A DNA stretch of 64,000 bases from Terriglobia bacterium (GTDB taxonomy: Bacteria; Acidobacteriota; Terriglobia; Versatilivoradales; Versatilivoraceae), in the NCBI GenBank assembly GCA_041476565.1, contig JBGOTQ010000002.1, positions 773-64,772 on the forward strand. Direction: 5' to 3'. Positions 22,422 through 60,200 of the stretch are shown here, one piece after another. A program made the translations under genes and the position numbers. The notes under the pieces are model-generated. The model was given only the letters and a program-made list of their open reading frames with translations, was not told the origin of the DNA and made no database searches. Each line of letters begins with the position of its first letter. Positions within the stretch are counted from its first letter, which is position 1.

Positions 22422-22448
22422 TATAGACAGGTTTTAGGAGAATACTTG

Positions 22449-22805: not shown

Positions 22806-22938
22806 TATGGCTAATAGGGCGCATTTCTATAAGCTGTGTTGCGCCGTAACAAAGCATGAACACCATCATGAGGTTTATGATGTGTCTCGCCCCGTTGATG
22901 CATCTGACGATACCGTAAAGGAGTTTGAAGAAGGCCCG

Positions 22939-24936: not shown

Positions 24937-24951
24937 GCTTTTCTGCAAGAT

Positions 24952-30303: not shown

Positions 30304-30336
30304 AAAAAATGGGTGGAGGGGTATCCCTCCACCCTG
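30304..30336 (-). terminator. Rho-independent terminator downstream of the pilin genes
   Basis: On the minus strand the sequence reads GGGTGGAGGG-atac-CCCTCCACCC followed by ATTTTTTTG. Confidence 0.8.
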
Positions 30337-30354: not shown

Positions 30355-30807
30355 TTACTCTCCGATTGGGCTGGCGGTAGAGTCAGGTGTACCAGTGAGG
30401 TTGTAACGAATCACTTGAGACTCGTCCGTGAAGTAATAACGCACACCTGAAGCCGTGGGTCCACTAGTAACTTGAGGGTCGGCCGTCGCGGTAAACTGCA
30501 ACGTGGGCGCTGCGCCGGCAACTGCGGCAAAAAGGTAACCGCTCTTCGCGCCACTACCAAGGACGTTGTCAATCACACCATCCTGTGAAAGACCTGTCAA
30601 AGTGGTGAATGCCCCTTGCGAAGAACGATACAACAGTTCTCCGCTTCCAATCGTTCTCATTGAAGCCGTGGCAGATCCCTCATTGGCAGACCTGCGGGCC
30701 TTTAACAAGTTCGGAATTGCAATTGCGGCAATGATCAGAATGATGGCCACCACAATCAACAACTCGATCAGCGAAAACCCCTTGTTTCTCTTCTTTGCTT
30801 TTTTCAT
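30355..30807 (-). CDS. type IVa pilin (prepilin-type N-terminal cleavage/methylation domain)
   Basis: The leader MKKAKKRNKG precedes the cleavage site and FSLIELLIVVAIILIIAAIAIPNLLKA. An AAGGAGA RBS lies upstream of the ATG at 30807. The Ser/Thr-rich C-terminal tail ends ...TGTPDSTASPIGE. Confidence 0.85.
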   Translation of the reverse strand: MKKAKKRNKGFSLIELLIVVAIILIIAAIAIPNLLKARRSANEGSATASMRTIGSGELLYRSSQGAFTTLTGLSQDGVIDNVLGSGAKSGYLFAAVAGAAPTLQFTATADPQVTSGPTASGVRYYFTDESQVIRYNLTGTPDSTASPIGE

Positions 30808-30877: not shown

Positions 30878-31315
30878 CTACTGCATGGGTGGACTGCTGA
30901 GGTCAGCGGACCCTGTCAGGCTGAAACGGACCACCGACGTCTCGTCTCCAAAGTAATAGCGAGCCCCTGAGGCTGATGGGCCCATAGCCAGTACCGGTTC
31001 GGCCGTCACAGTGTACTCGTAAGCGGCCCGAGCCCCCGGTGTCGTGTCAAAGTAGTACCCACTCTTCTCTCCGTTGGCCAGCCTTTGGTCGGTCAGGTAA
31101 TCTGCGCCGAGATCACTAAGAACCCCATAGGTCCCGAAGCTGTTGCGATAAAGACTCTGGGCACTCATGATGGCCCGGATCGATGAGGCTGCAGAAGCCT
31201 CGTTAGCTCTTGCTCTTGCCCCCAGGTAACTTGGAACTGCCATAGCTGAAACAATCATAATAATGGAAAGAACCAGCAAAAGCTCAATGAGTGAAAACCC
31301 CTTGTTGTTTCTCAT
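30878..31315 (-). CDS. type IVa pilin paralogue
   Basis: The leader MRNNKG precedes FSLIELLLVLSIIMIVSAMAVPSYLGA. The C-terminal tail ends ...LTGSADLSSPPMQ. The ORF-track start at 31492 would give an implausibly long leader. Confidence 0.8.
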   Translation of the reverse strand: MRNNKGFSLIELLLVLSIIMIVSAMAVPSYLGARARANEASAASSIRAIMSAQSLYRNSFGTYGVLSDLGADYLTDQRLANGEKSGYYFDTTPGARAAYEYTVTAEPVLAMGPSASGARYYFGDETSVVRFSLTGSADLSSPPMQ

Positions 31316-31589
31316 GACCACGATCCCCGTTCCTTTAGATCCATCGCCAGCACGAACCCAGCTTTGATACTTGAACCCCTTCGCATCTCCTTCAATCCCG
31401 ACGGCTCCCTCTAACTTCATCTTGCGTGTTGACTTGTGCATACGGCTCTCCAAAGTGACAGGGAATATGTGAAATTCGAATTCCTGCAGCAAAATAACTA
31501 TATTCTATTGAAATGCCAAGATTTGTAAATAACGATTTGTCAGAAATCTTTTATCTTCCAGTCCTGTCTTATCCCTCGAGAGCCCGATT

Positions 31590-31634: not shown

Positions 31635-33647
31635 TCAGTTCGGTCGGCCCATTGCAGTGTCGTTCTCATGTCTCTTGAATGGTTGTTGGTACTTGGGTTC
31701 GGAGGGGAACAGGTTCCGAGCCTTCAACCTGGCTTTCTCGGCATCATCCTCTCTTCCTAGTGCCATCAAAATCCGCCCTAGCTCGTAGACCGTTTCAGCA
31801 TTATAAGGGTCAAGCGCTGTAGCTTTCTCGAAGGAATCAAGAACAGATTCAAGGAGTCTCTGGTCCACTCGTTGCTGCTGAATTGCCAGTTGGAGTCGAA
31901 CCTTGGCCTCCAAGGTAATCGCCGCTGGGTTATTTGCATCGAAGTGTAGCGAATCCCTGAGGTCTTCTTGTGCTACATTCAAATGATTCGTGGCCATAGA
32001 GTCCATGCCCTGGTCCAAGGAGGTCTGGGCCAGGTATTGACGCCCGACCAGCCAGGACAAAACGCAAGAAAGTAGCAGACCAATAGTCCATACAGATCTG
32101 GATAGCCAACTGAATGATACAAATCGCAACCTGTCGAAACCCTGCACTCTGACGAGGTTTAGTAACAGGCCAAAAATAAGAATTCCAAGACTTCCTACGC
32201 TTGGGAAGTAAAGGTTAATGTCAATGAGGTTATGGACCCCCCAGGCCGCTAAAGACGAAGCGAGTGCGATGCTTAGAGCTATTCGATTTCCAGTTCCAAA
32301 TTTGAGATGGGGTAAGGGGTCAGTTACATGGGGATTTCTGGAGGGCTGAGCTCTGCGAAGCCGCAGACAACGTGGCGTAATGTGGCCTCGCAGAGCTCGG
32401 CCCTCCACTTGTAAATGACCTATTGCGGGATGGCAATAAGCCGGAGATGGATTCCTGTTTTCCGGGCCCCCGGAGTCTCCTCGGACGGTGTCAAGAAGGA
32501 GTTTTAACGATTGGAACGAGAGCACTAGCAGTCCTGCAGCCAGGATGAAAGCCATCACGCCGACCTCAGAAAGAAGTTGGAGCGGCGTATTATGTGCATA
32601 CTGTGTCACTGTCAGAGGAGAACCTTGGTAGCGTGGGTTGATGGTTCCGTAGTTGCCCAGCCCCACTCCGGTCCATGGGAAGTCCTCAAAGATATACCAT
32701 GCAGTCTTGTAGTTATTCCAACGCAAAACCATGGGGTTCGTGCTCGCGGTTAGATTGCCGAGGCTGAATCCTCGCTTATGAGTCACCCAGGCCATCCAGG
32801 CGCTCAACAGCACGAGAACAAGCACGAGACTGGCTGCAACACGGCGGAGGCGGAGTTTCCGGGGAATTACCATGAGGATCCCGGCGAAAGACACAGAAAC
32901 TAAAACAGAGGCCCATCCCCCGAAGGATTGTGTTAGAAGGAGCACGGCCATAGAAAGCAGGCAACTGCACATCATAAGAGTGCTCATGAGTCGGCTTTTC
33001 CGTATTGGTCCGGGCGCACCACCCATGATGCCCTCACACAAACGCGAACGAGCAATTGCAAAGTAAATTTGAAGAGGCAGAACCGTTGCCAGAAAACCGG
33101 CGAGAGTGTTGGGCAACGGAAAATTGGCGAGAACTCGTCGCGATTGGATTCGCGCCAACACTCTTGACTTGAAGGCCGGCTCAAGAAATGAAGCTTCTTG
33201 GAATTTCTCTCGCAGGTAATCCAGGCCGAAGAAGTACTGGTAAAGAGCAACAAGGCCGACGATTGTGGCTACCAGGCAGACCACTGCCACGGCGCCCTCT
33301 ATTTGTTTGAAATCAAAATCCAGCCAAGTCACGCTCAACAGAAGCAGGAGATAGGCAAGGAACAACCAGAAAACCTCCTGGCTTCGCGTTTTGTTGATGG
33401 AGCCGTACCACGACGGAAGCAAGCAAAGCAACGTCAGCAACGAAATCTTCAAAGAACGGGAAATGAAGTCATTCACGCCCTGTTGGTGTCGATATAACAA
33501 GGCTAGGAGAAAAGCCAAAAATGAGGTGAGGATGAAAAGGAATCTAGAATGATGAAAAACCTCTCCAGGATAAAACTGATTAACTGCGATCGGAAACAGA
33601 ATTACACCCACTAGCACGGCAGTCTTGAAATGGGGGTGTGCAGTCAT
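31635..33647 (-). CDS. O-antigen ligase (Wzy_C) domain protein fused to C-terminal TPR repeats; candidate PglL/TfpO-like O-oligosaccharyltransferase
   Basis: The Wzy_C signature loop WTGVGLGNYG...YAHNTPLQLLSEVGVMAF follows about 10 TM helices, and the C-terminus carries a TPR domain. I chose the start at 33647 (MTAHPHFK...), just after the upstream gene stop. Confidence 0.7.
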   Translation of the reverse strand: MTAHPHFKTAVLVGVILFPIAVNQFYPGEVFHHSRFLFILTSFLAFLLALLYRHQQGVNDFISRSLKISLLTLLCLLPSWYGSINKTRSQEVFWLFLAYLLLLLSVTWLDFDFKQIEGAVAVVCLVATIVGLVALYQYFFGLDYLREKFQEASFLEPAFKSRVLARIQSRRVLANFPLPNTLAGFLATVLPLQIYFAIARSRLCEGIMGGAPGPIRKSRLMSTLMMCSCLLSMAVLLLTQSFGGWASVLVSVSFAGILMVIPRKLRLRRVAASLVLVLVLLSAWMAWVTHKRGFSLGNLTASTNPMVLRWNNYKTAWYIFEDFPWTGVGLGNYGTINPRYQGSPLTVTQYAHNTPLQLLSEVGVMAFILAAGLLVLSFQSLKLLLDTVRGDSGGPENRNPSPAYCHPAIGHLQVEGRALRGHITPRCLRLRRAQPSRNPHVTDPLPHLKFGTGNRIALSIALASSLAAWGVHNLIDINLYFPSVGSLGILIFGLLLNLVRVQGFDRLRFVSFSWLSRSVWTIGLLLSCVLSWLVGRQYLAQTSLDQGMDSMATNHLNVAQEDLRDSLHFDANNPAAITLEAKVRLQLAIQQQRVDQRLLESVLDSFEKATALDPYNAETVYELGRILMALGREDDAEKARLKARNLFPSEPKYQQPFKRHENDTAMGRPN

Positions 33648-33657
33648 GAACCATCCG

Positions 33658-35490
33658 CTAATTCTTACCCTGGGCGTTGATCTTTTGATAACTGGCAGCC
33701 AGCTTCTGGTCAAAACGGGTAATCTCAGGCCCATTGCCTTCCACGAGCATTCTCCCTGCTTCCCATGCTTTCACTGCGTCTAACAATTGACCCTTTTCCT
33801 CCAAAACCCTTCCCAGCAGCCAGTATCCGTCAGGGGCTTGCGGGGATTTCCCCACAATCAGGCGCGCCGCCTCTTGGGCACGGGACAGCTGTTTTGTGTT
33901 CAAGTAAAAATTGGCAATACGATAAAAGGCACTGAGGTTTCCCGGGTTTATGTAAGTTGCCCTGTAGAACATGTAGAGGGCGCGAAGAAGATCGCCTTTT
34001 TCGGCATAGACTAGACCCAAGCCTTCAACTTCGACATCGGAGTTGGGCGCTGCGTTACTGGCTGAACGGTAGTATTTTTCAGCCAAATCCAAGCGTCCCT
34101 TTTGGAGGTAATATCCACCCAGGCCCTTCAGCGCAAAGTTAAAGTCCGGCCTCAACTCACAGGCAATTTGATATTGTAAACCCGCGGCATTGAACTGTCC
34201 CCGGGAGGCAAGCCATTCGCCCAAGTTGCAGTGGGCTAGACTCGATGTGAAGTTCTTTCTGGTTACGTCGGTCCAGAGAGTATAACTGGTCTTCCATGTC
34301 TGGCTGTATTGGAAAGCTCTGACCCAGAGCGTCCCTCCCATCAAACAGAGCACCCCTATCCATGCGATTCTCAACACGCCGTAATGGGCGAGTCGCTTCA
34401 CTGAACGAAGTACCAGATACGAGACGAGGCACCAGATCCCAATTTGTGGGATATAGAGATAACGGTTCGCCATCCTGACCGGGAGTGGGACAAGGTTGAG
34501 AACAGGTATGAGGAATATGACAAAGAACCAGAGCGCGAACTGCAGTCGCCGGTTCAAATAACCCAGGCCAGCAATGGTCAACAACGCAAGCACCAGCGAG
34601 AGCCAGAGTCCAACGTCAGCCCAAACCGGCGGATCCCCTGATCGATAGATCGCGCTGAGCTTAAAGGGAAAGAACAACAATCCAAGATAATCCCAGAATA
34701 ACCGGCCAAAACCCAGGAGGCTCAAAATGGATCCACCGCCGTGATAGGAACGCAGGGAGTTGCCTGATCCGGCAGCGTAGACGGTTGTAAACGCCAGCAC
34801 TTCGGCAGGAATAAGATAAGGTAACTTTTCATACAATTTCAATTCGCGCAGTTTCTCTCCCTTCATTCCGTAATCAAAAGCCAGGTAGATTGCCGGAGCC
34901 ACAATAGTACCGGCCTTGGAGAGAATCGAAAGCAGGAAAAAGAGAATGCTGCACAAGTAAGAGGTTCGGGATTGCTCTTGCCTGTAGCGAATATAGAAGT
35001 AGAACGACAAAAGGAAGAATAGGGCTGACAACAACGTTTTCCGCTCCGAAGCCCAGCTCACCGCTTCCACATTCACTGGATGGAAGGCAAAGAGGGCTAC
35101 CGTCAAGAGGGCTGCATCAGATCGGATTTGAGCGGTTCGCAACACCAGCAGCAGTGTCAATACACAACCAAGATGGATCCCTACGTTCAACAGGTGAGAA
35201 GCGTTTGCATTCAGCTTGAAAAGATGGAAATCGATCAGGTAAGAAAAAAGCGTAACCGGGGCGTAATTGCTGAAATAAGGTTGTGTAAGAATTCGGTTCA
35301 GATTGCCCAGCGAAACAATGTGAATCAGTGGGTTTTCTGTGATGTAGGTAGGGTCGTCCCAGTTCGTATACTCTTTTGGCAACGACCCTAGGTAGAGGGC
35401 GATGGTGGCCAGCAGGATTGCAACCAGTACCATCGAATGAGATCTAGAGGGGCTCTCCTTCATGGGGTTATTAGCGATCCAGCGACCCAC
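33658..35490 (-). CDS. GT39/PMT-like (TMTC-like) membrane glycosyltransferase with C-terminal TPR repeats
   Basis: The N-terminal polytopic domain has a WDD-containing first loop (NWDDPTYITENP), typical of protein O-mannosyltransferase-like GT-C enzymes. The C-terminal ~200 aa form TPR units. Confidence 0.65.
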   Translation of the reverse strand: MGRWIANNPMKESPSRSHSMVLVAILLATIALYLGSLPKEYTNWDDPTYITENPLIHIVSLGNLNRILTQPYFSNYAPVTLFSYLIDFHLFKLNANASHLLNVGIHLGCVLTLLLVLRTAQIRSDAALLTVALFAFHPVNVEAVSWASERKTLLSALFFLLSFYFYIRYRQEQSRTSYLCSILFFLLSILSKAGTIVAPAIYLAFDYGMKGEKLRELKLYEKLPYLIPAEVLAFTTVYAAGSGNSLRSYHGGGSILSLLGFGRLFWDYLGLLFFPFKLSAIYRSGDPPVWADVGLWLSLVLALLTIAGLGYLNRRLQFALWFFVIFLIPVLNLVPLPVRMANRYLYIPQIGIWCLVSYLVLRSVKRLAHYGVLRIAWIGVLCLMGGTLWVRAFQYSQTWKTSYTLWTDVTRKNFTSSLAHCNLGEWLASRGQFNAAGLQYQIACELRPDFNFALKGLGGYYLQKGRLDLAEKYYRSASNAAPNSDVEVEGLGLVYAEKGDLLRALYMFYRATYINPGNLSAFYRIANFYLNTKQLSRAQEAARLIVGKSPQAPDGYWLLGRVLEEKGQLLDAVKAWEAGRMLVEGNGPEITRFDQKLAASYQKINAQGKN

Positions 35491-35545: not shown

Positions 35546-36478
35546 TCAAGTCAATCGCCTGGCGAACACCCGCAAAACAGCGCCCTTGCCGAAGAAAGCC
35601 TCGACAATCGAGAATATAAAAGAGGGCAGAATCAAGACTGCCGCCAACCCCATGTGTAGCCCTTTAGTTATTATCGGTACCTGAATCTCCCTCTTTAAGA
35701 TCTTGTAAAGGGTCTCTGGTGGAAAGTTAAGGCAATTCAGCAGACTCTGCAAGGCGCCGAAAGGAGCTTGTTCTAATGACATCGTCGAGACCTGCTGGAC
35801 TGCAAACTGGCGAGAGTTAAGCAACTGTAAAATGCCGTTCCGGCTGTAGTGGACCAGATGTCGCGGAATATCCAGGTGGAACCATTTTTTTCCATACATC
35901 TGGGCTTGCAGACTCGAGAAATTAGGTACCTCCAGAACCAGTGCTCCCTTCGGTTTGAGAACTCGATGAACCTCTTTCAAAAATTCATTCGGATTCTCAA
36001 GGTGCTCCAGGACATGCCAGAGCACAACAAGATCGAAACTGCCAACTGCGAATCGGCAATCTTCCAAAGACTGCGTGAATACCTGCAACGCTGCAATCCG
36101 CCTTGCCCGAGCTGCAGCCAGGCTGGATCTCTCAATACCATAGCATTCATGCCCCATTTTTGCGAGCTGGTACAGGAGAAGCCCCCGGCCACAGCCGATT
36201 TCAAGGACCCTCCCAGGAGCTTGCAGCAATCGGTGAAGCTGGTGGGCCCGCACCCGGTTCATCCACTCGACGGCCATTTCCATTGGCTTGACGAACTTGA
36301 CATTCTCAGGGCCGTAATAGTCGTGGCAGTAGTAATGTTCAAGTTCTTCAGCCGAGGGCCGAGGTGAGGTCCATGCAGTTCCACATCGCCGGCAGCAGGA
36401 TAACCTGAACCCAGGAGAGGCAGAGGGCTTGTGATCGAATTCCTGGAATCCACATCCAGGACAGGCCTCTAAGTTCAT
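35546..36478 (-). CDS. class I SAM-dependent methyltransferase with an N-terminal zinc ribbon
   Basis: CPGCG...CCRRCG precedes motif I VLEIGCGRG and DLVVLWHVLEHL. The start at 36478 (MNLEACPGCG) avoids overlap with the downstream GT2 gene. Confidence 0.75.
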   Translation of the reverse strand: MNLEACPGCGFQEFDHKPSASPGFRLSCCRRCGTAWTSPRPSAEELEHYYCHDYYGPENVKFVKPMEMAVEWMNRVRAHQLHRLLQAPGRVLEIGCGRGLLLYQLAKMGHECYGIERSSLAAARARRIAALQVFTQSLEDCRFAVGSFDLVVLWHVLEHLENPNEFLKEVHRVLKPKGALVLEVPNFSSLQAQMYGKKWFHLDIPRHLVHYSRNGILQLLNSRQFAVQQVSTMSLEQAPFGALQSLLNCLNFPPETLYKILKREIQVPIITKGLHMGLAAVLILPSFIFSIVEAFFGKGAVLRVFARRLT

Positions 36479-36486
36479 TTCGGTTC

Positions 36487-37326
36487 CTAAACAAACTGCT
36501 TGAGGCGCACAATCCCCCATTTGAAAAGCAAATACTTGAGAATGGTCTTCAGGATGGATAGGCCATAAATGACTCCCGCTTTGAAGCTCACCGAGGACGA
36601 ATCAAAAGAGTATCTGGTTGGAACGGGAATTTCCTTGATTCGCACTTTCTTCAATACAAATTGCACCAGGATCTCGTTGTCAAAGACAAAGTTTTCGGAG
36701 TTAGCTTCGAAATTCACACACTCCAAAGCATGGCGGTTATAGGCTCGGTATCCGGTGTGAAACTCGGAAAGGTGAGTTCCGAGGGCGAAATTCTCCAACG
36801 CTGTAAGGAATTTATTAGCCACAAACTTATAAAGAGGCATTCCGCCAGCCAAAGGATTACCGAGCATGCGGGAAGCCAAGACGACATCCGCTTCACCTCG
36901 CAGGATGGGTTGGACGATATCTTTGGCGATAGTCGGGTCGTACTGGTAATCCGGGTGGAGCATAACAATGATGTCAGCTCCCTCTTCGAGAGCCTTGGTG
37001 TAACAGGTTTTCTGGTTTCCACCGTAGCCACGGTTCTTCCGGTGCCGGATGGCCTGAATTTTCAGCTTGGAGGCAATTTCCAGAGTGTTATCCGAACTTG
37101 CATCGTCAACCAAAATGATTTGATCGTAACTTCCATCCGGCAGTGCGTAGTAAGTTTTTTCCAAGGTGAGCGCCGCATTATAAGCCGGCATTACTATCAC
37201 GATCTTCGGCGTCTTCTGCACTGGAAGCGCCAATGACGGCCCGTTAGGTTCAGGCTCGCCACCGGAAGAAGACGAGGTTTGTTTGGAAATTAAACTGACC
37301 ATGGCTGACATCCAGGTGAAATTCAA
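36487..37326 (-). CDS. GT2 polyprenol-phosphate sugar synthase-like glycosyltransferase (DPM1/ArnC/GtrB-like)
   Basis: The GT-A fold carries IVIVMPAYNAALTLEKT and a DxD motif (LVDDASSDNT). The start codon is TTG at 37326, overlapping the upstream stop as TTGA. Its architecture matches the enzymes that supply lipid-linked monosaccharides to GT-C transferases. Confidence 0.7.
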   Translation of the reverse strand: MNFTWMSAMVSLISKQTSSSSGGEPEPNGPSLALPVQKTPKIVIVMPAYNAALTLEKTYYALPDGSYDQIILVDDASSDNTLEIASKLKIQAIRHRKNRGYGGNQKTCYTKALEEGADIIVMLHPDYQYDPTIAKDIVQPILRGEADVVLASRMLGNPLAGGMPLYKFVANKFLTALENFALGTHLSEFHTGYRAYNRHALECVNFEANSENFVFDNEILVQFVLKKVRIKEIPVPTRYSFDSSSVSFKAGVIYGLSILKTILKYLLFKWGIVRLKQFV

Positions 37327-38510
37327 GCCGAAGATTGCTTAGGATTCAATACGGGCCCAGCCCGCTCGGCTAATTTCGAGTAAAGGGAGGCGTGCTTTCG
37401 CAGCATGTTGGCCACGGAGAATTCCTCCAGCGAGGCTCCGCTCCCTTGCCCAAGCCGTAGCCTAAGAGACTCATTACTTAGCAACTCCACAATTCTTTCG
37501 GCCATGGCTTCCAAATCTCCTGGAGCCACGAGAAATCCACTCTCACCATTCTGGATGACTTCCGAGACCCCGTCAATATCATACGCGACCACAGGCAGGC
37601 CAGCCAACCTGGCTTCCACCAGAACCCTTGGCAACCCCTCCCAGAGCGACGTGAGAATGAAGACTTCGAAAACTCGCAGCAGTTCAGGGATATCTTTCCT
37701 CCATCCCATCAGCGTGACCACCGACTCGAGATGCAAATCTTGAATCAGAGCTTCCAACTCGGGTCGGAGCTCCCCGTCTCCAACGACCAGGAATTTTAGG
37801 TTGGGCACACGGGCACTCACCATACCAGCCACCCTGAGAAGGTGATCGAGGGCTTTAGGAGGCTTAAACCCCGCCACCGTTCCGACTATTCTAACTGATG
37901 CGTCGCATTCCGATTCCCTTTTCTTGGCTGCTTCGTCTCTGCCGACCTCTAGAAAGGCATGTAGGTCAATGCCAGAACGAATCAACTCACAATCCTGCTT
38001 GTGGAGGATTCCGTAAGCCTCTCCTCTTTTCCAATTGTTTTTCGAAACAGCGATAAAGTGCTGGGTAATAATTGCTGTCAATTGTTCGGCCCAGATTAAG
38101 GGAAGTCTTTTCCAAAACGGATGTGCATCGCTGAATCCAAAGCCGTGATATGTGTGGATGATGGTAGGAACGCCACCAGCCCAAGCAGCCCATCGGCCCA
38201 CGATCCCCGCCTTTGGGGTATGGGTATGAACGATGTCAGGCTTTTCGTTTTGGAGGATGTTTCGGATCTTCAAAATCGCTCTGAGATCTGTCCAGGCGCC
38301 TGATATGCCGACTCGCCTGGTGAGTTCAGGTACCACGTATTTCCTGACGTGAGTGATCGCAGCCAGCTCTTCAAATAATAGGCCTCCCTCGCCTGTTATG
38401 AGAATCTGCTCAAAAAGGTCCGGACTGAGCCCCCTGGAGAGGAACAGTACCGCCTGTTGGGCCCCGCCCAAGTCCATGCGTGTAATGATTCGAGCAATTT
38501 TAACTTTCAT
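37323..38510 (-). CDS. GT4 (group 1) glycosyltransferase
   Basis: The GT-B fold carries the C-terminal E..7..E-like motif ILTSLWEGLPRVLVEARLAGLPVVAYD. Confidence 0.8.
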   Translation of the reverse strand: MKVKIARIITRMDLGGAQQAVLFLSRGLSPDLFEQILITGEGGLLFEELAAITHVRKYVVPELTRRVGISGAWTDLRAILKIRNILQNEKPDIVHTHTPKAGIVGRWAAWAGGVPTIIHTYHGFGFSDAHPFWKRLPLIWAEQLTAIITQHFIAVSKNNWKRGEAYGILHKQDCELIRSGIDLHAFLEVGRDEAAKKRESECDASVRIVGTVAGFKPPKALDHLLRVAGMVSARVPNLKFLVVGDGELRPELEALIQDLHLESVVTLMGWRKDIPELLRVFEVFILTSLWEGLPRVLVEARLAGLPVVAYDIDGVSEVIQNGESGFLVAPGDLEAMAERIVELLSNESLRLRLGQGSGASLEEFSVANMLRKHASLYSKLAERAGPVLNPKQSSA

Positions 38511-38719
38511 AGATCAGCTATGGCCACGGAACCACACTGAAACACACGGCGAACCTTGCAATCATGCCTTATCAGAAGCAGCGGTGTAGCCGTCCAAAGA
38601 TATATGCGTGTCAGACCGAAAGCCTGGATTGTTTTTGGCCTCAGCCATAGTCTGAGTTAGAGGTAAAGCAGTACTCAAGGGCTTGCTTCCGTGTACTTCT
38701 GTGTGTTTCCGTGGCCAGT

Positions 38720-48853: not shown

Positions 48854-50035
48854 TTATGAGTTCTGGATCTCACGATAGATACACGCTAGGCGCCCTGCTT
48901 GCGTCACTGCATTGTATTCTGCTTCCACGTGTCGACGGCCCTGCATGCCCATCTCGGGCCATTTCTCCGGGTTCTCAACCAGCCAAAAAAGATTATTTAC
49001 TATCCCTTCAACGTCTCGTTCTTCGGCCAAGAGTCCACTCTGGCCATGTTTCACAATCGCGGGGATATCGCAATGGTATGTACTGACAACCGGCATTCCT
49101 GTAGCCAATACTTCAATGAGACTTACTGGCGCACCACCTTCAGTGTCACCGTCGATTGACGTTATACTGGGAGACAAAAAGATGTGATGTCGATAACACT
49201 CTTCCAGAAAAACATTATAAGGCTGAAACCCCAGCAGCCTCGTTGTGTTACGCATTCTGTACCTATCGATTGTGTCTAGGATTCTTTGTTTTTCAGAATG
49301 GTTGCGAGATTCGTGGTCGGCATCACCGATAATAGTTGTGGTAATTGGAACATCCTGCTGCAGGCGTCCCAGGGCTTCCAAGGCGTAAGGGATACCTTTC
49401 TTCTCCCGGAACGAGGCAGCTATTAGCACGCGCAAGTCTTCTGAACGCTCCCAGAACCTTGGTCTAAAATCGATGCAGTGGACAGGCACACCAAGATGAT
49501 GAACCTTAACCAGAGCCGGAGGGCACCCCAATTCCACCAGACATTGTGCCATGTGCGGCCCCTCGCATAAGACGCCATCAACTTGGTCAAATAACTCCAT
49601 GTACCTTTCCCTCCAGACGGCATCCTGCCTTGGGAGATAGTTTACGTCCAGCCCGTAAAAACTGACAAGGTGCCTGAGTCCAGACTGCTTTGCGGCTTTG
49701 GAGTTAATCCAGCCGACATTACCGAAATGAGAGTGAAGAATCTTGGCATGATGTTGTCGTGCGGCTCGAATCAAAAATCCAAGATGCCGCCGGACCCCAA
49801 ATTTCCGCATGGCCCTGTCAAAATATTGCATGTAAAAGGGAACCTCGGCAAAAGCATGCAAGTTGGCTATGGGGAATTGCTGTAGATTCAAGGTCTCTCG
49901 GCAGAGGATATGACTCTCTACTGTGGACGGCAACAGCCGGATTTGATGGTAAAGCCAGGGTTGGGTTTGCGGCAGCCAGCAAGGAACGTCATGGCACACT
50001 ACAACTCTATTGTCTATCTTGGATTTGACAGCCAT
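48854..50035 (-). CDS. GT4 (group 1) glycosyltransferase
   Basis: The EGGAPVSLIEVLATGMPVVST motif is typical of GT4 enzymes. Confidence 0.85.
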   Translation of the reverse strand: MAVKSKIDNRVVVCHDVPCWLPQTQPWLYHQIRLLPSTVESHILCRETLNLQQFPIANLHAFAEVPFYMQYFDRAMRKFGVRRHLGFLIRAARQHHAKILHSHFGNVGWINSKAAKQSGLRHLVSFYGLDVNYLPRQDAVWRERYMELFDQVDGVLCEGPHMAQCLVELGCPPALVKVHHLGVPVHCIDFRPRFWERSEDLRVLIAASFREKKGIPYALEALGRLQQDVPITTTIIGDADHESRNHSEKQRILDTIDRYRMRNTTRLLGFQPYNVFLEECYRHHIFLSPSITSIDGDTEGGAPVSLIEVLATGMPVVSTYHCDIPAIVKHGQSGLLAEERDVEGIVNNLFWLVENPEKWPEMGMQGRRHVEAEYNAVTQAGRLACIYREIQNS

Positions 50036-50277
50036 TGTTCTTTCCTTGCTTCTCCAACCGACTCGATGAAATGTGACAGTGGCTTAGAGACACCGGACCA
50101 CCCCCTCATGCCATATGGATCGTCATCTCCATGTCGTGCAGAGAGGAACAAGCATTGGTGGCAAACCAAGCCTTAGTTTGTCGAAATCGGATAGGAAGCC
50201 CATGTATGACTCTTGCTTGGTTATTGGACTTCATACCCTAGGCATTAATCCAGAAAACAAAAGGCATCACATGTTCT

Positions 50278-51759
50278 CTAAATCTGTTCTCGGAGCATAT
50301 CAAGCAAGCGAACAGATTGCTGGCGATTGATGAACCAACTCGAAACCAAGTATACAATTCCTCCCACAGCAACCATTAGCGTCAGTGCGGCAAAGGAAGG
50401 GATCCTGAAAACAAAACGGGCCTTGAGGAAAGAAAGCACTACATACATCACTAGGCTGCTTGCGAAAGGGCGCCAAAGTGTGACGGCAAGGTCGGCGACC
50501 GGGAGGTCGATTAAACGAAAGGAAATAACAAAACTTGGACCCGCCAAGATGAAAGACATGACAGCATAGCAGGTCGCAACGCCGTAAATGCCCCAGCGCA
50601 ATCCCACCAGAAATGAAATGATTGTCAGCACACCGGCGACGACTCCCCAACGAAGCATCAGATCTGTTCTTCCTTTAGCCTGATAAATAGCTCCAACTGT
50701 AGTTCCGATTGATTGGATCATGCCTACTGGCACCAAAATTAACAAGAGCTTGGGGACAGGTGCCCATTGCGGTCCAAACACGGTGAAGACAAACAGGTCA
50801 CGGGTGACGAGCAAGCCGAATGCCATAGGAAAAGAGAGGAACGCAATCGCGCTAGACACATTCAAGTATGCACGTCGAAATCGCGATTCCGTGTCTTGGA
50901 GTTGCGAGTAGACAGGAAACATGACTCTCCCCACCACATCTGACATGACTTGGATGGGATAGTACATAATGCGATAGGCCAAAGCGTAGAAACCCAGATT
51001 GCCTGGGCCAAGATACCTCCCGATCAGGAAGTTGTCCGCATTTCTCGCAAGGTAATTGAAGATATTAAAGCCGGTCAAGTTCAGGCTGTACCAGCCAATG
51101 GTTTTGACGGCCGACGCCTTAAAAACGAACCGGGGAGCCCAAGGGCTAAGGATCCACTGCAGTACCGATGTGACTAGGACAATTGTCAGGGTCTGAAAGA
51201 TTAGACTCCAACTGCCTGCTCCCCAATAAGCCAGCCCAATGCCGACCGGAGCACCAACCGCGACAGCGGCCATCTCAGTCTTTGCAATGGTGTGAAAAGC
51301 CAACTGTCGTTGCATTAATGCTTGTTGTACAGTACTGAAGCTGGAAATCAAGAAAGTGAACGCGAGCACCTTGAGCATGAGGACGATCCGCGTATCGTGA
51401 AAAAGTATTCCAAACACCGGAGAGAGCACAACAAGACCTCCCGTGGCTGCGAAGCCTATGGCAACGTTGGTCCAAAACACGCTCGAAGCTATCTCTTCGG
51501 GGAGATCCCGCGCCTGGATGATGGCCGCCGAAGTACCCAAGTCTCTGATGAGTCCCAAAAACCCGACAGCAATGGTTGCCATCCCCACCAGTCCGAAATC
51601 CGTCGGTGTTAAGAGACGGGCCAGGATGACCACGGAGGCGAAATGCAGAAATTGTTTTCCGATGTTTGAGACAAATGACCATTTGACCCCAGAAGAAGCA
51701 GACTGTCTTAGACTCACAATGACTTCTTTCTGGCGACCACAAGGTACATCAATGTCCAT
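50278..51759 (-). CDS. wzx: Wzx-like oligosaccharide flippase (MOP superfamily polysaccharide biosynthesis protein)
   Basis: It has 12-14 TM helices and a Wzx-type N-terminus, VKWSFVSNIGKQFLHFASVVILARLLTP. Confidence 0.8.
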   Translation of the reverse strand: MDIDVPCGRQKEVIVSLRQSASSGVKWSFVSNIGKQFLHFASVVILARLLTPTDFGLVGMATIAVGFLGLIRDLGTSAAIIQARDLPEEIASSVFWTNVAIGFAATGGLVVLSPVFGILFHDTRIVLMLKVLAFTFLISSFSTVQQALMQRQLAFHTIAKTEMAAVAVGAPVGIGLAYWGAGSWSLIFQTLTIVLVTSVLQWILSPWAPRFVFKASAVKTIGWYSLNLTGFNIFNYLARNADNFLIGRYLGPGNLGFYALAYRIMYYPIQVMSDVVGRVMFPVYSQLQDTESRFRRAYLNVSSAIAFLSFPMAFGLLVTRDLFVFTVFGPQWAPVPKLLLILVPVGMIQSIGTTVGAIYQAKGRTDLMLRWGVVAGVLTIISFLVGLRWGIYGVATCYAVMSFILAGPSFVISFRLIDLPVADLAVTLWRPFASSLVMYVVLSFLKARFVFRIPSFAALTLMVAVGGIVYLVSSWFINRQQSVRLLDMLREQI

Positions 51760-52484
51760 TGTTCGGTTCTATCAATTCTGTCCACCCCGAAGGATATAAG
51801 CTGAGTGAGTAGTCCCACAAGGTCGACAAGGTGCAACCAGCGGAGAGGCCCGCGATTGAAGCGATAAAGGTTATACACAAATAGTTGCCCAAAGGTGCCC
51901 CAAAATCCTGAAAGAGCATTGATCTCGACGATCTCAAACCCAACCTTCTCAAATAGATATTTCAATCCATACCTACTGAACCTAAAGAAGTCTCGAGGTT
52001 CCTCATGAAGGTGCCAGATGAACGGGACAGTATACAGAGCATATCCACCAGCCCGCAAAAGGCGATGGCATTCCCGAAGCGCTACCTCTGGCTCCTCAAG
52101 GTGCTCCATGACCGATGTGCACAACACCGAGTCAAATGACTGGTCATCAGCGGGAATTCTGTAAGCCGTTCCCCAAAGGTCAACATCCTTTGGGCCATGA
52201 AGAGTACCAGAATGGTCAATTCCGATGTGTTCAGTCACCAAGGATGAAAGCACTTGCCTGAAAGGCTTGGTTCCACAGCCGATATCGATGAGTCTGCCGC
52301 AGAGATACTTCTTTGCGGCTCTAACGACTTCGCGATCGTGAATATAGTGGACTAACAAGTTTCTGATTTGGCGTACCACAGTCTTCCTACCCAGGGTGTG
52401 AAGCTGCTTGACGTCACGAGCCGGGTCAAGCCTAAGATGGATAAGACAAATTACATCGCGCCGTCCCAAGGTTTCAGGAGCCAA
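51714..52484 (-). CDS. class I SAM-dependent methyltransferase
   Basis: Motif I is LIDIGCGTKPF, with CTSVMEHLEEP and RAGGYALYTVP. Confidence 0.8.
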   Translation of the reverse strand: MAPETLGRRDVICLIHLRLDPARDVKQLHTLGRKTVVRQIRNLLVHYIHDREVVRAAKKYLCGRLIDIGCGTKPFRQVLSSLVTEHIGIDHSGTLHGPKDVDLWGTAYRIPADDQSFDSVLCTSVMEHLEEPEVALRECHRLLRAGGYALYTVPFIWHLHEEPRDFFRFSRYGLKYLFEKVGFEIVEINALSGFWGTFGQLFVYNLYRFNRGPLRWLHLVDLVGLLTQLISFGVDRIDRTEQWTLMYLVVARKKSL

Positions 52485-52629
52485 CGAGACACAAAAGCAA
52501 CTTGGGAGAGATCAAGCTGGTGAACGATAATAGTGAAGTCCCAGTCTCCTATTCACTGCCCATTCATCGAAGCGTCTTATCCGCAGGGCTACTAGTCTAT
52601 CGCTCAAGCACGATTGGTCGTTCAGTCTG

Positions 52630-53163
52630 TCAAGACTCCGTTTTCTTATAGGCAATGCAGCTTGCGGAGGCACTCAGCCTTTGCCACTTAGTCACTTTGA
52701 GCAGGAGTGAGACGAAGTACCGTTCAGCCTGGCTGTTGCCAAAGAAACTTCGTGGGGAGTTCCAGGGGACGATCCTCTCAAACCCTTTCGAAGATAACAA
52801 ATGGACCAATTCTCGAGGGGAATACATGTGAAGGTGCGTAGGATCAGCGCTTCGTTCAGCCTTGTTGAACCGGCTAGGTGAAGCCACAAACAACATTCCT
52901 CCGGGACGCAGCACCCGACGAGTTTCCTCCAGGCACGTGACGGCGACCCCGGGTTCCAGATGTTCGATCACTTGGTTGCATACAACTGTCTGAAAGATGG
53001 CATTCCCAAAAGGAAATGGCTGGCTCAACATATGCAACAGAATCTGAACCCCCGGGCATCGAACCTGGGCCGCCTCGATAGCCTTGCTAGATCCTTCTAA
53101 ACCTTCACAATTCAAACCCCAACGCACGGCACACTCAACAAATAGTCCAATTCCTGCTCCCAC
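52630..53163 (-). CDS. class I SAM-dependent methyltransferase; the start is unresolved and it may be frameshifted or a pseudogene
   Basis: The GTG called as start is the Val inside motif I (ILD-V-GAGIG). The frame stays open upstream to 53349 (…YFERFYSSRDWRFYRDILSLIVRFSEPGPILDVGAGIG) with no ATG, GTG or TTG. That extension overlaps the 3' end of the 53307.. gene in another frame. Confidence 0.55.
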   Translation of the reverse strand: MGAGIGLFVECAVRWGLNCEGLEGSSKAIEAAQVRCPGVQILLHMLSQPFPFGNAIFQTVVCNQVIEHLEPGVAVTCLEETRRVLRPGGMLFVASPSRFNKAERSADPTHLHMYSPRELVHLLSSKGFERIVPWNSPRSFFGNSQAERYFVSLLLKVTKWQRLSASASCIAYKKTES

Positions 53164-53306
53164 ATCCAGGATCGGACCTGGCTCAGAGAATCTGACGATC
53201 AGGGAGAGTATATCCCTGTAAAATCTCCAATCTCGAGACGAATAGAATCGTTCGAAGTACTGCCCTGTTCCGATTCCCCCATTAATGGAGTATTGCTGTG
53301 ACGTAG

Positions 53307-53912
53307 CTATGTTTTTCTCCCAGCCATGATGGAAATTCGTTCTCCAAGATCAAAATAGTCATGCAAATGCGCAAGATGTACAAAAGGGAACATCAGTTCA
53401 TAATCGCCGAATTGTCGAAACACCCAGTGCGTCCCGTTTTGCAAGGGAGAAGTATTCTCGACCAGGAACAAAAGGCCCCTATCTTTCAAAACCCTTCTAA
53501 TTTCAGCAATTGTGTTGACCAGAGTGATGCCAACTATGCCGCCTAACACAAGACAAGACCATACAACGTCCACTGACTTATCACAGAGTGGAATGTTCCC
53601 CTCTTTCATGATTTTGTATTCCACATTCGGAGTTTTGGGTGCCATGGCGATCAATGCGGGAATGGGATCAGCACCTATTACCAAGCCTCCATTGATAATT
53701 GAAGCCAGTTCCGAGCTGAACCGCCCAGGGCCACAGCCAAGGTCGAGAATCACTTTGTCTGATGGCAGCAGAACTTGCTGGAGACAAGGGAAAATCTCTT
53801 TGTGCTGAAAATCTGTAATAGCGTCGTATTCATTTTGGCCGTGGTTTATATTCAGAACAGCTCTTTTGCCATAACACTTTACCCGGCTCTGCCAGTAAGA
53901 GACCCCTGTCAA
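53307..53912 (-). CDS. class I SAM-dependent methyltransferase
   Basis: Motif I is ILDLGCGPGRF. The ORF-track start at 54107 would overlap the DegT gene by 142 bp. An internal TTG at 53912 with an upstream GGAAG is the more likely start. Confidence 0.7.
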   Translation of the reverse strand: MTGVSYWQSRVKCYGKRAVLNINHGQNEYDAITDFQHKEIFPCLQQVLLPSDKVILDLGCGPGRFSSELASIINGGLVIGADPIPALIAMAPKTPNVEYKIMKEGNIPLCDKSVDVVWSCLVLGGIVGITLVNTIAEIRRVLKDRGLLFLVENTSPLQNGTHWVFRQFGDYELMFPFVHLAHLHDYFDLGERISIMAGRKT

Positions 53913-53965
53913 TTCTTGCTTCCGACGGAAGCTGAGCCAAATCCATCTTTCGATGATTCTTCGGA

Positions 53966-55159
53966 TTAACGATCTTTCCACAATATAGTTGACGTGACCG
54001 CCTGAACAACGTCCTGCCTGTCCTGGGTATATAGCTTCGGAGACAACGGTAGGCTCACAGTCTTCCTCCCGATGCACATTGCATTCGGGTAGTCTTCGGG
54101 TTTCCAATCAAAGGTACTTTGGTAGTATGGGTGTTCGGGAATACTCAAGTAGTGCACCCCCACTCCGATGTTTTCCCTGGTCATGGCCTCAAGAAATTGG
54201 TCTCGTTCAATCCCGGCGTGTACAGGGTCGATTAGAATGGTATAGAGATGATAGGCATGTCGTATCCACGGCTCGGGATCTGAGGGTAAACCGACGGGTA
54301 ATTCGCTTAAGGCTTGATTATAGTAATTCCAGATCTCACGTCGGCGAAACCAGTTCTGATCCACCCGTGCCAGTTGGTGGATTCCAATGGCGGCTTGGAG
54401 GTCCATCATGTTGTATTTGAACCCGCATTCCACCACCTGATAATGCTTGTATCCCTCATCACTGTAGCGTTTCCAGGCGTCATGGCTCATTCCATGGAGA
54501 GCCAGCACCTTGATGCGAGCTGAATCTTCTTCCCTCCGGGCAAGTACCATTCCCCCTTCCCCAGTAACTACGTTCTTGGTCACATAAAAGCTGAAACACC
54601 CAAAATCTCCAAACGTGCCCACTTTGCGCCCCTTGTATTCAGCTTCAATGGCGTGGGCGCAGTCCTCTATGACCTTCAAGCCGTGACTCTCGGAAATCGA
54701 ACACAAGGAATCCATGTCACAGGATCTGCCAGCAAAATGAACAGGCAGGATGGCACGCGTTCTGGGGGTAATCCTGGCTTCCACCTGTGCCGGATCGATG
54801 GTCATAGTCCTGGGATCCACGTCAGCCAGCACAGGAGTGGCCCCTGCATGGATGATGGCATTGACGGTAGCACAAAAGGTCAAGGCAGAAGTAATGACCT
54901 CGTCGCCCGCCTTGATGCCCGCAGCAAGCAGGCTGAGATGCAGGGCAGCCGTGCAGGAGTTGACTGCGACCGCAAATTCCGCACCTTTGTAAGCCGCGAA
55001 TTCCCTTTCGAATTGGGCCACCTTGGGCCCGGTTCCCAGCCATCCCTTCTTCAGGGAGTCTACAACTTCCTCAATTTCAGCGTCTTCAATAACCGGAGCG
55101 CCAAAGACTAGAAACCTGTCTTTGGTCCGAACGGGGCGGAATTCCTTCTTATTCTTCAT
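53966..55159 (-). CDS. DegT/DnrJ/EryC1/StrS-family PLP-dependent sugar aminotransferase
   Basis: The conserved DEVITSALTFCAT motif and the PLP-lysine region SFYVTKNVVTGEGG are present. I chose the start at 55159 (MKNKKEF...). Confidence 0.85.
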   Translation of the reverse strand: MKNKKEFRPVRTKDRFLVFGAPVIEDAEIEEVVDSLKKGWLGTGPKVAQFEREFAAYKGAEFAVAVNSCTAALHLSLLAAGIKAGDEVITSALTFCATVNAIIHAGATPVLADVDPRTMTIDPAQVEARITPRTRAILPVHFAGRSCDMDSLCSISESHGLKVIEDCAHAIEAEYKGRKVGTFGDFGCFSFYVTKNVVTGEGGMVLARREEDSARIKVLALHGMSHDAWKRYSDEGYKHYQVVECGFKYNMMDLQAAIGIHQLARVDQNWFRRREIWNYYNQALSELPVGLPSDPEPWIRHAYHLYTILIDPVHAGIERDQFLEAMTRENIGVGVHYLSIPEHPYYQSTFDWKPEDYPNAMCIGRKTVSLPLSPKLYTQDRQDVVQAVTSTILWKDR

Positions 55160-55450
55160 AGAGTGCCTCAAGAGTTCTCTCAATAGCATGACTCCCGAGG
55201 AAAATGGTTTACGAAGATGGGGGCCACGCTCCGACCGGGCATCGAGCCCTGTCCGGCGGACTTGCCGCGCAGGAGTGCGGCTCCCACTTTGAAGAGCCCA
55301 TTTTCACGTAGGTACCTTAAGTATGGACAATCTGCTCCAACCATCCTTAGAATGAAACTCTGAATGGACCTTTCGGGCATAACCTGCGAATCTAGCCCGA
55401 AGGTTAGCTATCTCAAGACTCACAGATCGTAAGATAATCGACCCAACTGC

Positions 55451-56209
55451 GTGATACCAGCTAGGCGACACGAGATCAGCATTGAATATGACCGTCCCGA
55501 AACTCATGCGGTTCGGGTCAAGGCGGAGATTACCCCATTGATTTGGCGAAGAGCTTTAGTGGTATCGCTCTTAATGGTTGCCCCTGTCGCCACCCCTTCG
55601 GCCAACCTGGACGATCTGAATAGCACTATTAATTCCCTTCAAAAGAAATACTCAAAGGTCATAGACCTCCGCATGGACTTTATTCAGACGTACAAAACAC
55701 CACGAAGGCCTCCACGGACGGAGACCGGGATTCTTTACCTTCGCCGTCCCGGCATGATGCGTTGGGAGTACCATTCTCCCAGTGAAAAGCTCTTTGTATC
55801 CAACGGGAAGGACATTTACTTTTATCTCCCCGAAGAGCAACAAGTTCAGAAGACCACGGTCAAAGAAAGCCGGGACCAGCGTCTGCCCTTTCTTTTTCTC
55901 CTTGGCAGAAGCAATCTAAGGAAGGACTTTTCTAAAATAGAATGGGCTAACGAGCAAAAGTCCTTTTTTGCTGGCAACCGCATCCTTTACGCTTACCCTA
56001 AGAAGAATATCGACGATTTTTCAAAAGTCCTTATGGAGTATGAACCTGGAAGGGTTCAACTGCAACGGGTCATTATCTTTGACATTGATGGATCAACGAG
56101 CGAATTCGTTTTTACCAATATCAAGGAAAATTCCGGACTCAGCCCCAAGCTCTTTGAGTTTCATATTCCAAGCAACGTCGAGGTGATCGGCTCGGGGGAG
56201 AACCAGTAA
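55451..56209 (+). CDS. LolA-like outer-membrane lipoprotein carrier protein
   Basis: The LolA signature region is GILYLRRPGMMRWEY.P...LFVSNGKDIYFY. The true start is probably the TTG at 55538, which gives a clean signal peptide MIWRRALVVSLLMVAPVATPSA. Confidence 0.65.
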   Translation: MIPARRHEISIEYDRPETHAVRVKAEITPLIWRRALVVSLLMVAPVATPSANLDDLNSTINSLQKKYSKVIDLRMDFIQTYKTPRRPPRTETGILYLRRPGMMRWEYHSPSEKLFVSNGKDIYFYLPEEQQVQKTTVKESRDQRLPFLFLLGRSNLRKDFSKIEWANEQKSFFAGNRILYAYPKKNIDDFSKVLMEYEPGRVQLQRVIIFDIDGSTSEFVFTNIKENSGLSPKLFEFHIPSNVEVIGSGENQ

Positions 56210-58095: not shown

Positions 58096-58125
58096 GGGAC
58101 AGGTTAGAGAAGAAAGAGAAAACTG

Positions 58126-58488: not shown

Positions 58489-58547
58489 CCACTTTAGGTG
58501 GAAGTGGTTAACTGTTCCCTGTAACCTATGACCTGTAACCTAAAACC

Positions 58548-60197: not shown

Positions 60198-60200
60198 TTC

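Follow-up and report, generated by a model that had tools for sequence, protein, structure and literature searches.

Four classes of bacterial O-oligosaccharyltransferase (O-OTase) are known, TfpO, TfpM, PglL and PglS, all of which carry a Wzy_C domain, with PglL and PglS possessing an additional PglL_A domain and a periplasmic C-terminal Wzy_C_2 domain (PMC9829042, PMC12645811). The genes coding for TfpO, TfpM and PglS lie beside those of their own pilin substrates, as do 21 of 31 predicted PglL homologues (PMC3643930, PMC9829042, PMC12645811), and PglS has been modelled with 13 transmembrane (TM) helices and a large C-terminal periplasmic domain (PMC12800693). Here we describe a stretch of 64,000 nucleotides, referred to below as the window, from a Terriglobia bacterium of the phylum Acidobacteriota (assembly GCA_041476565.1, contig JBGOTQ010000002.1, positions 773 to 64,772). 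A gene on its minus strand (31635..33647) codes for a protein of 670 residues in which a Wzy_C domain is joined to tetratricopeptide repeats (TPR), and two type IV pilin genes lie downstream of it on the same strand. The architecture of this Wzy_C-TPR protein is closest to that of PglS and PglL, and on the strength of its sequence and genomic setting it is probably a pilin-dedicated O-OTase. Coordinates are positions in the window and refer to the minus strand unless marked (+).

Comparative genomics provides the decisive evidence for the pilin-linked reading. A scan of GTDB with one genome per species gave 30 loci with a homologue, all in metagenome-assembled genomes (MAGs) of Acidobacteriota, and a motif scan was run on the 10-kb flanks to either side. 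One to three pilin open reading frames (ORFs), with mature lengths of mostly 132-143 residues, are found within 4.3 kb in 28 of the 30 species-level genomes, and no other pilin ORFs occur elsewhere in the flanks of these 28 loci; the remaining two are contigs that end before the expected pilin position. The pairing of Wzy_C-TPR genes with pilins is far beyond chance, and it persists down to about 26% identity and through three different gene arrangements.

The first of these arrangements, clade A (L001, L002 and the P0012 contig; 37-47% identity), runs in the order WecA-like transferase, family 1 and family 2 glycosyltransferases (GT1 and GT2), methyltransferase, GT-C/TPR enzyme, Wzy_C/TPR enzyme, two or three pilins, ATP-binding cassette (ABC) ATPase, ABC-2 permease and an unknown protein, with the pilins 284-355 nt downstream of the Wzy_C-TPR gene. 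Five of the clade-A MAGs (L008, L014, L018, L019 and L022) are titled ‘Acidimicrobiia’; their proteins and gene order match those of Acidobacteriota/Terriglobia MAGs and they are probably mislabelled bins. In clade B (L003, L006; 27-35% identity), a group with members among Solibacteraceae and Terriglobia MAGs, two tandem Wzy_C-TPR paralogues, the second of which retains the Arg and His of the active site, are divergent from two pilins, which are directly abutted by genes for LolA, PilC (T2SSF) and PilB (T2SSE). These tandem paralogues are only distantly related, at about 20% identity (L003/L024 7980-11587; L006/L023; L021, L025-L037). Two TPR-bearing enzymes are present for two pilin types in each case, a Wzy_C-TPR and a GT-C/TPR enzyme in clade A and two Wzy_C-TPR enzymes in clade B.

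A HMMER search of 1.84 billion representatives returned 1540 proteins at E<=1e-30, many of them full-length proteins of 540-650 residues outside the core family, and three of five more distant relatives sampled from these matches (L038-L042) have an adjacent pilin. They reveal the third arrangement, clade C, where a GspG-like pilin immediately upstream is followed by a Wzy_C gene and then by a Wzy_C/TPR gene; a pilin of the clade-C type also lies just upstream in L020. The coordinates for this group are 336-7343 in L040, 5382-12439 in L041, 5458-9869 in L042 and 6001-12352 in L038. In L038, L040 and L041 the next gene codes for a fusion of about 860 residues resembling a major facilitator superfamily (MFS) transporter joined to a spermine/spermidine synthase, its place being taken in L042 by a GT1 gene. 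The sole glycosyltransferase common to all of the pilin-linked arrangements is the Wzy_C-TPR gene.

The two pilins of the window each possess a class III signal peptide with a KG|FSLIELL processing site and a hydrophobic N-terminal helix, and match both N_methyl and TIGR02532. Pilin 1 (30878..31315) has the leader MRNNKG|FSLIE and a mature length of 139 residues without Cys, ending in ...VVRFSLTGSADLSSPPMQ (N_methyl E 1.4e-8, with a weak match to PilA_Myxo), while pilin 2 (30355..30807) has the leader MKKAKKRNKG|FSLIE and a mature length of 140 residues, ending in ...VIRYNLTGTPDSTASPIGE (N_methyl E 1.7e-9). Orthologues of pilin 1 occupy the equivalent position in 28 genomes, and pilin 2 represents a second conserved pilin type. 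The pilins of clades A and B can be aligned over their whole length, with Cys absent in all but one. Beyond the last strand, V[IV]R[FY], the linked pilins carry a tail of 12-17 residues rich in Ser, Thr, Ala, Gly and Pro, which in clade A is of two types, ...[ST]SP[PV][IM]Q and ...S[GS]AIGN, and in clade B takes the forms ...RAP[AS]GxxGxPVQ, ...GVTxGAPVQ and ...PTGxxAGDPVG. The last residue of the listed clade A and B pilins is Q, N, D, E, G or I, with the exception of one that ends ...PVGS, and pilins that end in Thr (some as ...YPEGVQT) were seen only in clade C.

The gap of about 320 nt between the Wzy_C gene and pilin 1 contains the best sigma-70-like promoter match of the scan (TTTACA-16-TAGAAT, 31502..31529), which agrees with the consensus at 10 of 12 positions and is a consensus match only. 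Directly after pilin 2 there is a terminator-like hairpin with a 10 bp stem, including eight GC pairs, followed by a T-run (30311..30334). The promoter match upstream and the hairpin downstream suggest that the pilin pair is transcribed as a separate unit, which is probably highly expressed. Matches to the sigma-54 consensus (TGGCAC-N5-TTGC) were at chance level, 65 found against 62 expected, and none upstream of the pilins was convincing.

The 670-residue form of the Wzy_C-TPR protein is the product called by NCBI (P0001, 100% identity), and is numbered accordingly here. The longest form of the ORF (31635..33734) has 699 residues and begins at an alternative upstream ATG at 33734, the start at 33647 being Met30 of that form. 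Pfam places the Wzy_C domain (PF04932; 68.8 bits against a cut-off of 31.7, E 5.7e-19) at residues 228-370 (257-399 in the 699-residue numbering; 32538..32966), where it contains the periplasmic catalytic loop, and the same family scores above its gathering threshold in 33 of 33 homologues. The C-terminal region matches TPR_19 (residues 632-683 of the 699-residue form, E 3.6e-5) and, over the same residues, TPR_17, and the periplasmic TPR domain as a whole comprises three helical hairpins (residues 556-646; 31710..31982). An earlier note on this DNA, made from the letters alone, had described a Wzy_C domain fused to TPR, quoting its motifs, and two pilin genes directly following with Ser/Thr-rich tails. 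All of this is borne out: the motifs GVGLGNYG and QYAHNTPLQLLSEVG are present, the pilins have their N_methyl matches and G|FSLIE sites on the shared strand, and their C-termini are exactly those claimed, ...SADLSSPPMQ for pilin 1 and ...TASPIGE for pilin 2, within tails whose Ser/Thr-rich character is conserved.

Sequence profiles connect the protein to a known fold. The family profile searched against the PDB matched consensus TPR proteins (E 2.6e-68) and WaaL (7TPG, E 1.4e-9), and a core profile lacking the TPR region had a sole PDB sequence match, the WaaL of C. metallidurans (7TPG, E 3.6e-12); a PDB search with the single sequence found TPR proteins only, WaaL being reached only with the family profile. 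In the hidden Markov model (HMM) alignment to 7TPG, R309 falls on WaaL R265 and H352 on WaaL H313, and this Arg and catalytic His are common to WaaL and PglL (R288 and H338 in the E. coli enzyme, R298 and H349 in PglL; PMC3643930). The protein is predicted from these profiles to have a WaaL-type fold of the GT-C_B superfamily, with the catalytic Arg and His kept. From the helices of the AlphaFold2 (AF2) model and the charge pattern of the loops, the protein crosses the membrane 13 times and ends in a helical domain in the periplasm, over which Pfam gives a weak Wzy_C_2 match; the topology is oriented by setting the catalytic loop (residues 293-364) periplasmic, as in WaaL. The Arg-rich loops 390-446 and 501-513 are then cytoplasmic and the domain after TM13 is periplasmic, and the 14 polar and Gly/Pro residues examined that are invariant or nearly so all fall in periplasmic loops.

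A full-length alignment of 33 homologues, at 24-74% identity to the window protein, shows P27, E29, R171, T239, G243, R309, G327, G329, H352, Q357, E361, H472 and N473 to be invariant and D476 to be near-invariant (>=90% conserved). R309 (32721-32723) and H352 (32592-32594), whose coordinates were confirmed by translation, lie in the Wzy_C catalytic loop together with G327 and G329. Related enzymes have a second pyrophosphate-binding Arg, which is R191 in the WaaL of C. metallidurans, R215 in that of E. coli and R224 in PglL. Arg171 (33135..33137), which the topology places in the periplasmic loop ahead of TM6, is perhaps the candidate for this role here, a role that has to be inferred because Arg171 is not aligned to WaaL R191. 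A second invariant periplasmic motif, H472-N-L-I-D476-x-x-L-Y-F-P-S (32199..32234; alignment and topology), is located between TM11 and TM12, with its H472-x3-D476 element about 60 residues past the catalytic His if the insertion described next is discounted.

The cytoplasmic loop at about residues 390-446 (32310..32480) is rich in Arg, Pro and His, with 8 Lys/Arg, and contains a disordered, lineage-specific insertion that is found within the alignment only in P0001 and P0002; the predicted local distance difference test (pLDDT) score is below 50 at residues 403-438. A frameshift or assembly artefact was considered for this segment and rejected, as the frame is continuous, the insertion of P0002 is in the same place and the segment is a cytoplasmic loop. 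In P0002, the closest homologue at 73% identity, the insertion has already strongly diverged in sequence.

Directly upstream of the Wzy_C gene, and probably translationally coupled to it, is a gene (33658..35433; 591 residues in the NCBI call) for a PMT/ArnT-like membrane glycosyltransferase of GT-C fold with a C-terminal TPR domain. Next comes the conserved core of a glycan module (35546..39745, Pfam), the order of which is kept in L001, L002, P0012 and L008-L022. It consists of an S-adenosylmethionine (SAM) methyltransferase (35546-36520, Pfam), a Dpm1-like GT2 resembling polyprenyl-phosphate-sugar synthases (36487-37326; NCBIfam matches AglJ, PpgS and Dol-P-hexose transferase), a GT1 (37323-38510, Pfam) and an initiating transferase of the WecA/MraY family (38720-39745; NCBIfam matches WecA and MraY). 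Beyond this the variable part of the island takes up about 15 kb (39833..55189). It codes for additional GT1 and GT2 enzymes, a PMT_2-like protein, six more methyltransferases and a DegT aminotransferase (53966-55189, Pfam), and also for a flippase of the MOP/Wzx type (50278-51759), which scores 295 bits where the cut-off is 273. Genes for SAM-dependent methyltransferases are unusually many, at least eight in and around the island (35546-54107, plus 26673-27263), and this number suggests that the island glycan is heavily O- or N-methylated.

At its far end the island gives way to divergently oriented genes of the type IV pilus machinery, LolA-like, PilC (T2SSF), PilB (MshEN and T2SSE), PilM, PilN and PilO (55451..62320 (+), Pfam). 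With the pilins on one side and this machinery on the other, the glycan island of about 24 kb (31.6-55.2 kb) is sandwiched between them. Downstream of the pilins are an ABC ATPase (29275-30228, Pfam), an ABC-2 permease (28505-29383, Pfam) and a conserved single-TM protein of 297 residues (27611-28504), a set that follows the pilins in L001, L002, P0012 and other clade-A loci too. Its arrangement recalls that of the Myxococcus pil cluster, where pilA precedes the ABC-transporter genes for PilG, PilH and PilI. NCBIfam gave only generic DrrA/GldA-type and ABC-2 matches for the downstream transporter, and its equivalence to PilH/PilI/PilG, with the 297-residue protein as PilG, is just a lead (PMC6060248). 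The whole of 27611-62320 reads as a single type IV pilus ‘superlocus’ in which pilins and ABC transporter, glycan island and divergent LolA-like/PilC/PilB/PilM/PilN/PilO genes succeed one another. Further large polytopic membrane proteins, likely of GT-C type, are encoded at 19872-26646 (+) and 39833-41785: a YfhO-family protein of 849 residues, two unclassified proteins of 729 residues (with a weak LIC_10190-family match) and 564 residues, and the PMT_2-like protein of 650 residues. YfhO and PMT_2 genes are also found beside the L002 locus and beside that of the P0012 contig.

The analysis shows the domains, fold, topology and conserved residues of the protein and the linkage of its gene; the donor, the acceptor, the residue glycosylated and what the TPR domain does we infer. 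In the mechanism that we propose, the island would build a methylated oligosaccharide on undecaprenyl phosphate (Und-P) in the cytoplasm through its WecA-like initiator, GT1, GT2 and SAM methyltransferases, and the Wzx flippase would move the lipid-linked glycan to the periplasmic face. There the Wzy_C enzyme would hold the pyrophosphate by conserved Arg (R309 and perhaps R171) and, with His352 as the base, would pass the glycan en bloc to a Ser or Thr of the flexible tail with which both pilins end, while these are anchored in the membrane, after which the PilB/C/M/N/O machinery would assemble them. The TPR domain probably docks the tail or the globular domain of the pilin. The GT-C/TPR neighbour probably transfers single sugars, either onto the pilin or onto its glycan, from a polyprenyl-phosphate donor that the Dpm1-like GT2 would supply.

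Several observations weigh against a pilin-dedicated O-OTase. The WaaL R191 column is occupied by Phe242 in the window protein, so that the third Arg lies outside the canonical column. Of the domains of PglL and PglS, PglL_A (PF15864/IPR031726) had no match in the window protein in Pfam at E<=1 and does not figure among those families that two or more of the 33 homologues match, and Wzy_C_2 (PF11846/IPR021797), which spans residues 489-655 (518-684 in the 699-residue numbering) and profile positions 31-184 of 191, is a weak, sub-threshold match (22.6 bits against a cut-off of 28.5) found in 4 of the 33 homologues. The clade-B tails have few Ser/Thr, and the positions of these vary from clade to clade. 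The pilin could be modified by the adjacent GT-C/TPR enzyme instead, and the island has a Wzx and just one Wzy_C protein, so that on the window alone the protein could be a ligase or polymerase for a surface polysaccharide. Two of the distant relatives lack pilins. One (L038) has the clade-C enzyme pair without a pilin, and the other (L039, 3879-7046) is a Wzy_C protein of 1055 residues with a long TPR array that has no pilin nearby and lies beside genes for KdsA, a KpsF-like SIS/CBS protein, a GT2 and a WecA-like transferase. The latter may be a TPR-bearing O-antigen ligase in a lipopolysaccharide (LPS)-like context, and that context indicates that TPR fusion is not specific to pilin contexts. 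Because these two relatives lack pilins, we regard the pilin link as deep and recurrent, yet not universal for the Wzy_C-TPR architecture.

The proposal of the earlier note can be adjusted to these results. Its central suggestion, a pilin O-OTase candidate, is supported by the predicted WaaL fold with its Arg and His, the periplasmic TPR domain after TM13, the near-obligate pilin linkage, a complete assembly line for a glycan on undecaprenyl pyrophosphate (Und-PP) with a Wzx and without polymerase partners, the flanking pilus machinery and the conserved Ser/Thr-rich tails. Its description of the protein as TfpO/PglL-like holds for an architecture resembling that of PglS and PglL; in detail the analogy to TfpO fails on size (670 residues against 420-470) and on pilins that end in Q or E, and PglL_A is undetected. 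As for the TPR module, for which the note suggested a part in recognising the acceptor protein, the periplasmic domain is there; the pilin-free relatives make the fusion alone not diagnostic.

The adjacency of the pilins could instead be due only to co-regulation of pili and polysaccharide, with the Wzy_C-TPR protein serving as a surface-polysaccharide enzyme, either a WaaL-type O-antigen ligase or a Wzy-type polymerase, that acts on the island glycan. Wzy_C spans both ligases and polymerases, the nearest solved structure is a WaaL, and the island with its flippase and no other Wzy_C protein, the 1055-residue relative in its KdsA/KpsF-like/GT2/WecA-like setting and the pilin-free L038 would all fit such a role. 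A Wzy polymerase, however, works with a Wzz regulator of the polysaccharide co-polymerase (PCP) type, and for exopolysaccharide (EPS) with a Wza outer membrane polysaccharide export (OPX) protein, usually encoded in the same cluster. No Wzz, Wza (Poly_export) or second Wzy_C was found among the scanned ORFs of at least 150 residues in the window, which thus offers a polymerase no such partner, and a ligase would find no lipid A-core or core-biosynthesis genes in the window either. Clades B and C keep Wzy_C-TPR genes and pilins, clade B with PilB, PilC and LolA also, but have no glycosyltransferase cluster comparable to the window island, with the caveat that L003 has NTP_transferase and DegT genes nearby and L042 two GT1 genes and a Polysacc_synt gene. 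TM13 and the periplasmic domain, moreover, are described for protein O-OTases and are absent from WaaL (PMC12800693, PMC12645811). A surface-polysaccharide role is, on this evidence, unlikely.

A protein glycosylation enzyme need not be dedicated to pilins, and the pilins could be merely the most abundant of many periplasmic and membrane substrates of a general PglL-like O-OTase. The size and architecture of the protein are PglL/PglS-like, and the Ala/Ser/Pro-rich tails (...SSPP...) resemble the low-complexity acceptor regions reported in PglL substrates (PMC3643930). We think this quite unlikely, since the tight pilin linkage is typical of dedicated O-OTases such as TfpO, TfpM and PglS and, according to published reports, is not the rule for PglL (PMC12645811). 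Enzyme gene number, moreover, follows the occurrence of two pilin types at the loci, and PglL_A was not detected.

It is improbable, by our estimate, that the upstream GT-C/TPR enzyme, as a PMT/ArnT/TfpW-like protein, is the pilin glycosyltransferase and that the Wzy_C-TPR protein extends or polymerises the resulting glycan or ligates it elsewhere. The neighbour does have a GT-C fold and TPR, with a Dpm1-like synthase encoded two genes further upstream, past a methyltransferase gene, and TfpW, which arabinosylates the pilin in P. aeruginosa, is a glycosyltransferase of the membrane whose gene lies next to pilA (bioRxiv 10.1101/2020.04.19.049825). The GT-C/TPR gene is confined to clade A, however, whereas clades B and C are linked to pilins by Wzy_C-TPR genes alone, and the two activities are not mutually exclusive and could coexist. 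That the protein lacks catalytic activity and serves, like PilF, PilW or Tgl, as a TPR scaffold on which pilus assembly or stability depends is very improbable, as a catalytic Arg and His and a dozen other periplasmic residues invariant across homologues of 24-74% identity form the pattern of an active enzyme.

Taking the Wzy_C-TPR protein as a pilin-dedicated O-OTase, a bolder extension can be put forward, which we hold to be possible but doubtful. Two unrelated membrane glycosyltransferase folds, the WaaL-fold O-OTase and a PMT/ArnT-fold, TMTC-like enzyme, would both carry out TPR-guided pilin glycosylation, each docking a pilin tail (for example ...PP[IM]Q or ...AIGN) through a three-repeat periplasmic TPR domain, with one enzyme per pilin paralogue and a second Wzy_C-TPR enzyme replacing the GT-C enzyme in clades B and C. 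In eukaryotic TMTC1-4 and OGT, TPR arrays are used or proposed for acceptor selection, and the neighbour at 33658-35433 is, like TMTC, a GT-C enzyme with C-terminal TPRs, any homology to TMTC or TfpW being at the level of the fold only. If true, this arrangement would be a bacterial counterpart of TPR acceptor selection in OGT and TMTC, and a fifth O-OTase class with a defined, portable peptide tag.

The logic of a pilin-adjacent Wzy_C enzyme is already established; the new elements are the phylum, the TPR module, its pairing with a GT-C/TPR enzyme, and a locus that is compact and self-contained. Acidobacteriota are abundant in soil and hard to culture. O-OTases are working enzymes in the production of bioconjugate vaccines, so that a further class whose sequon is a short C-terminal tail and whose recognition domain can be separated would be of practical value. 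The literature searched gave no description of a WaaL-fold O-OTase with a TPR domain or of a TPR-bearing Wzy_C enzyme tied to pilins, and no paper on pilin glycosylation in Acidobacteria. If confirmed, the Wzy_C-TPR family would be the fifth bacterial O-OTase class after TfpO, TfpM, PglL and PglS, the first outside the Proteobacteria with a canonical TPR module for acceptor binding as its defining feature, and, by the literature searched, the first evidence of type IV pilus glycosylation in Acidobacteriota. Acceptor, transferase, a second TPR-bearing enzyme of GT-C type, the glycan assembly line and the pilus machinery are all within about 37 kb, and this compactness makes the locus suited to asking how membrane glycosyltransferases pick their protein substrates.

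Sequence similarity to known O-OTases was undetectable in the searches made. The WaaL O-antigen ligase of Cupriavidus metallidurans (7TPG/7TPJ) has neither TM13 nor TPR, its R191 is unmatched in the window protein, and the context here is a type IV pilus rather than an LPS core. TfpO/PilO of P. aeruginosa 1244 and Acinetobacter and TfpM of Moraxellaceae are likewise pilin-adjacent, dedicated Wzy_C enzymes that act on the C-terminal tail of the pilin (PMC9829042). They differ in being of 420-470 residues without a C-terminal periplasmic domain (PMC9829042, Table 2), in being encoded downstream of pilA, where the window enzyme gene is upstream of its pilins, and in glycosylating a terminal Ser/Thr; membership of TfpO/TfpM was rejected on the size of 670 residues, the TPR domain and pilins not ending in Ser/Thr. 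PglL/PglO, the general O-OTase of Neisseria, is of the same fold family, with equivalents of the conserved Arg and His and a GxG motif before the His, and favours Ala/Ser/Pro-rich flexible segments that are like the pilin tails described here (PMC3643930). The H472-x3-D476 element resembles H400-x3-E404 of PglL and E379 of PglS, after TM11, as a pattern match and not an alignment (PMC3643930, PMC12800693). Membership of PglL by Pfam was rejected for want of a PglL_A match, Wzy_C_2 being sub-threshold, and Neisseria PglL is general and not pilin-linked, whereas the Wzy_C-TPR family is almost always pilin-linked. PglS, the ComP-specific enzyme of Acinetobacter baylyi ADP1, shares with the window protein a core of Wzy_C/WaaL type, the 13 TM helices followed by a sizeable periplasmic domain at the C-terminus, a catalytic His with flanking Arg residues and a gene that adjoins that of its pilin or pilin-like substrate (PMC12800693, PMC12645811). 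What sets the window protein apart from it is an undetected PglL_A, a Wzy_C_2 match below threshold, a different phylum, Acidobacteriota, and a C-terminal domain that takes the form of a canonical three-repeat TPR.

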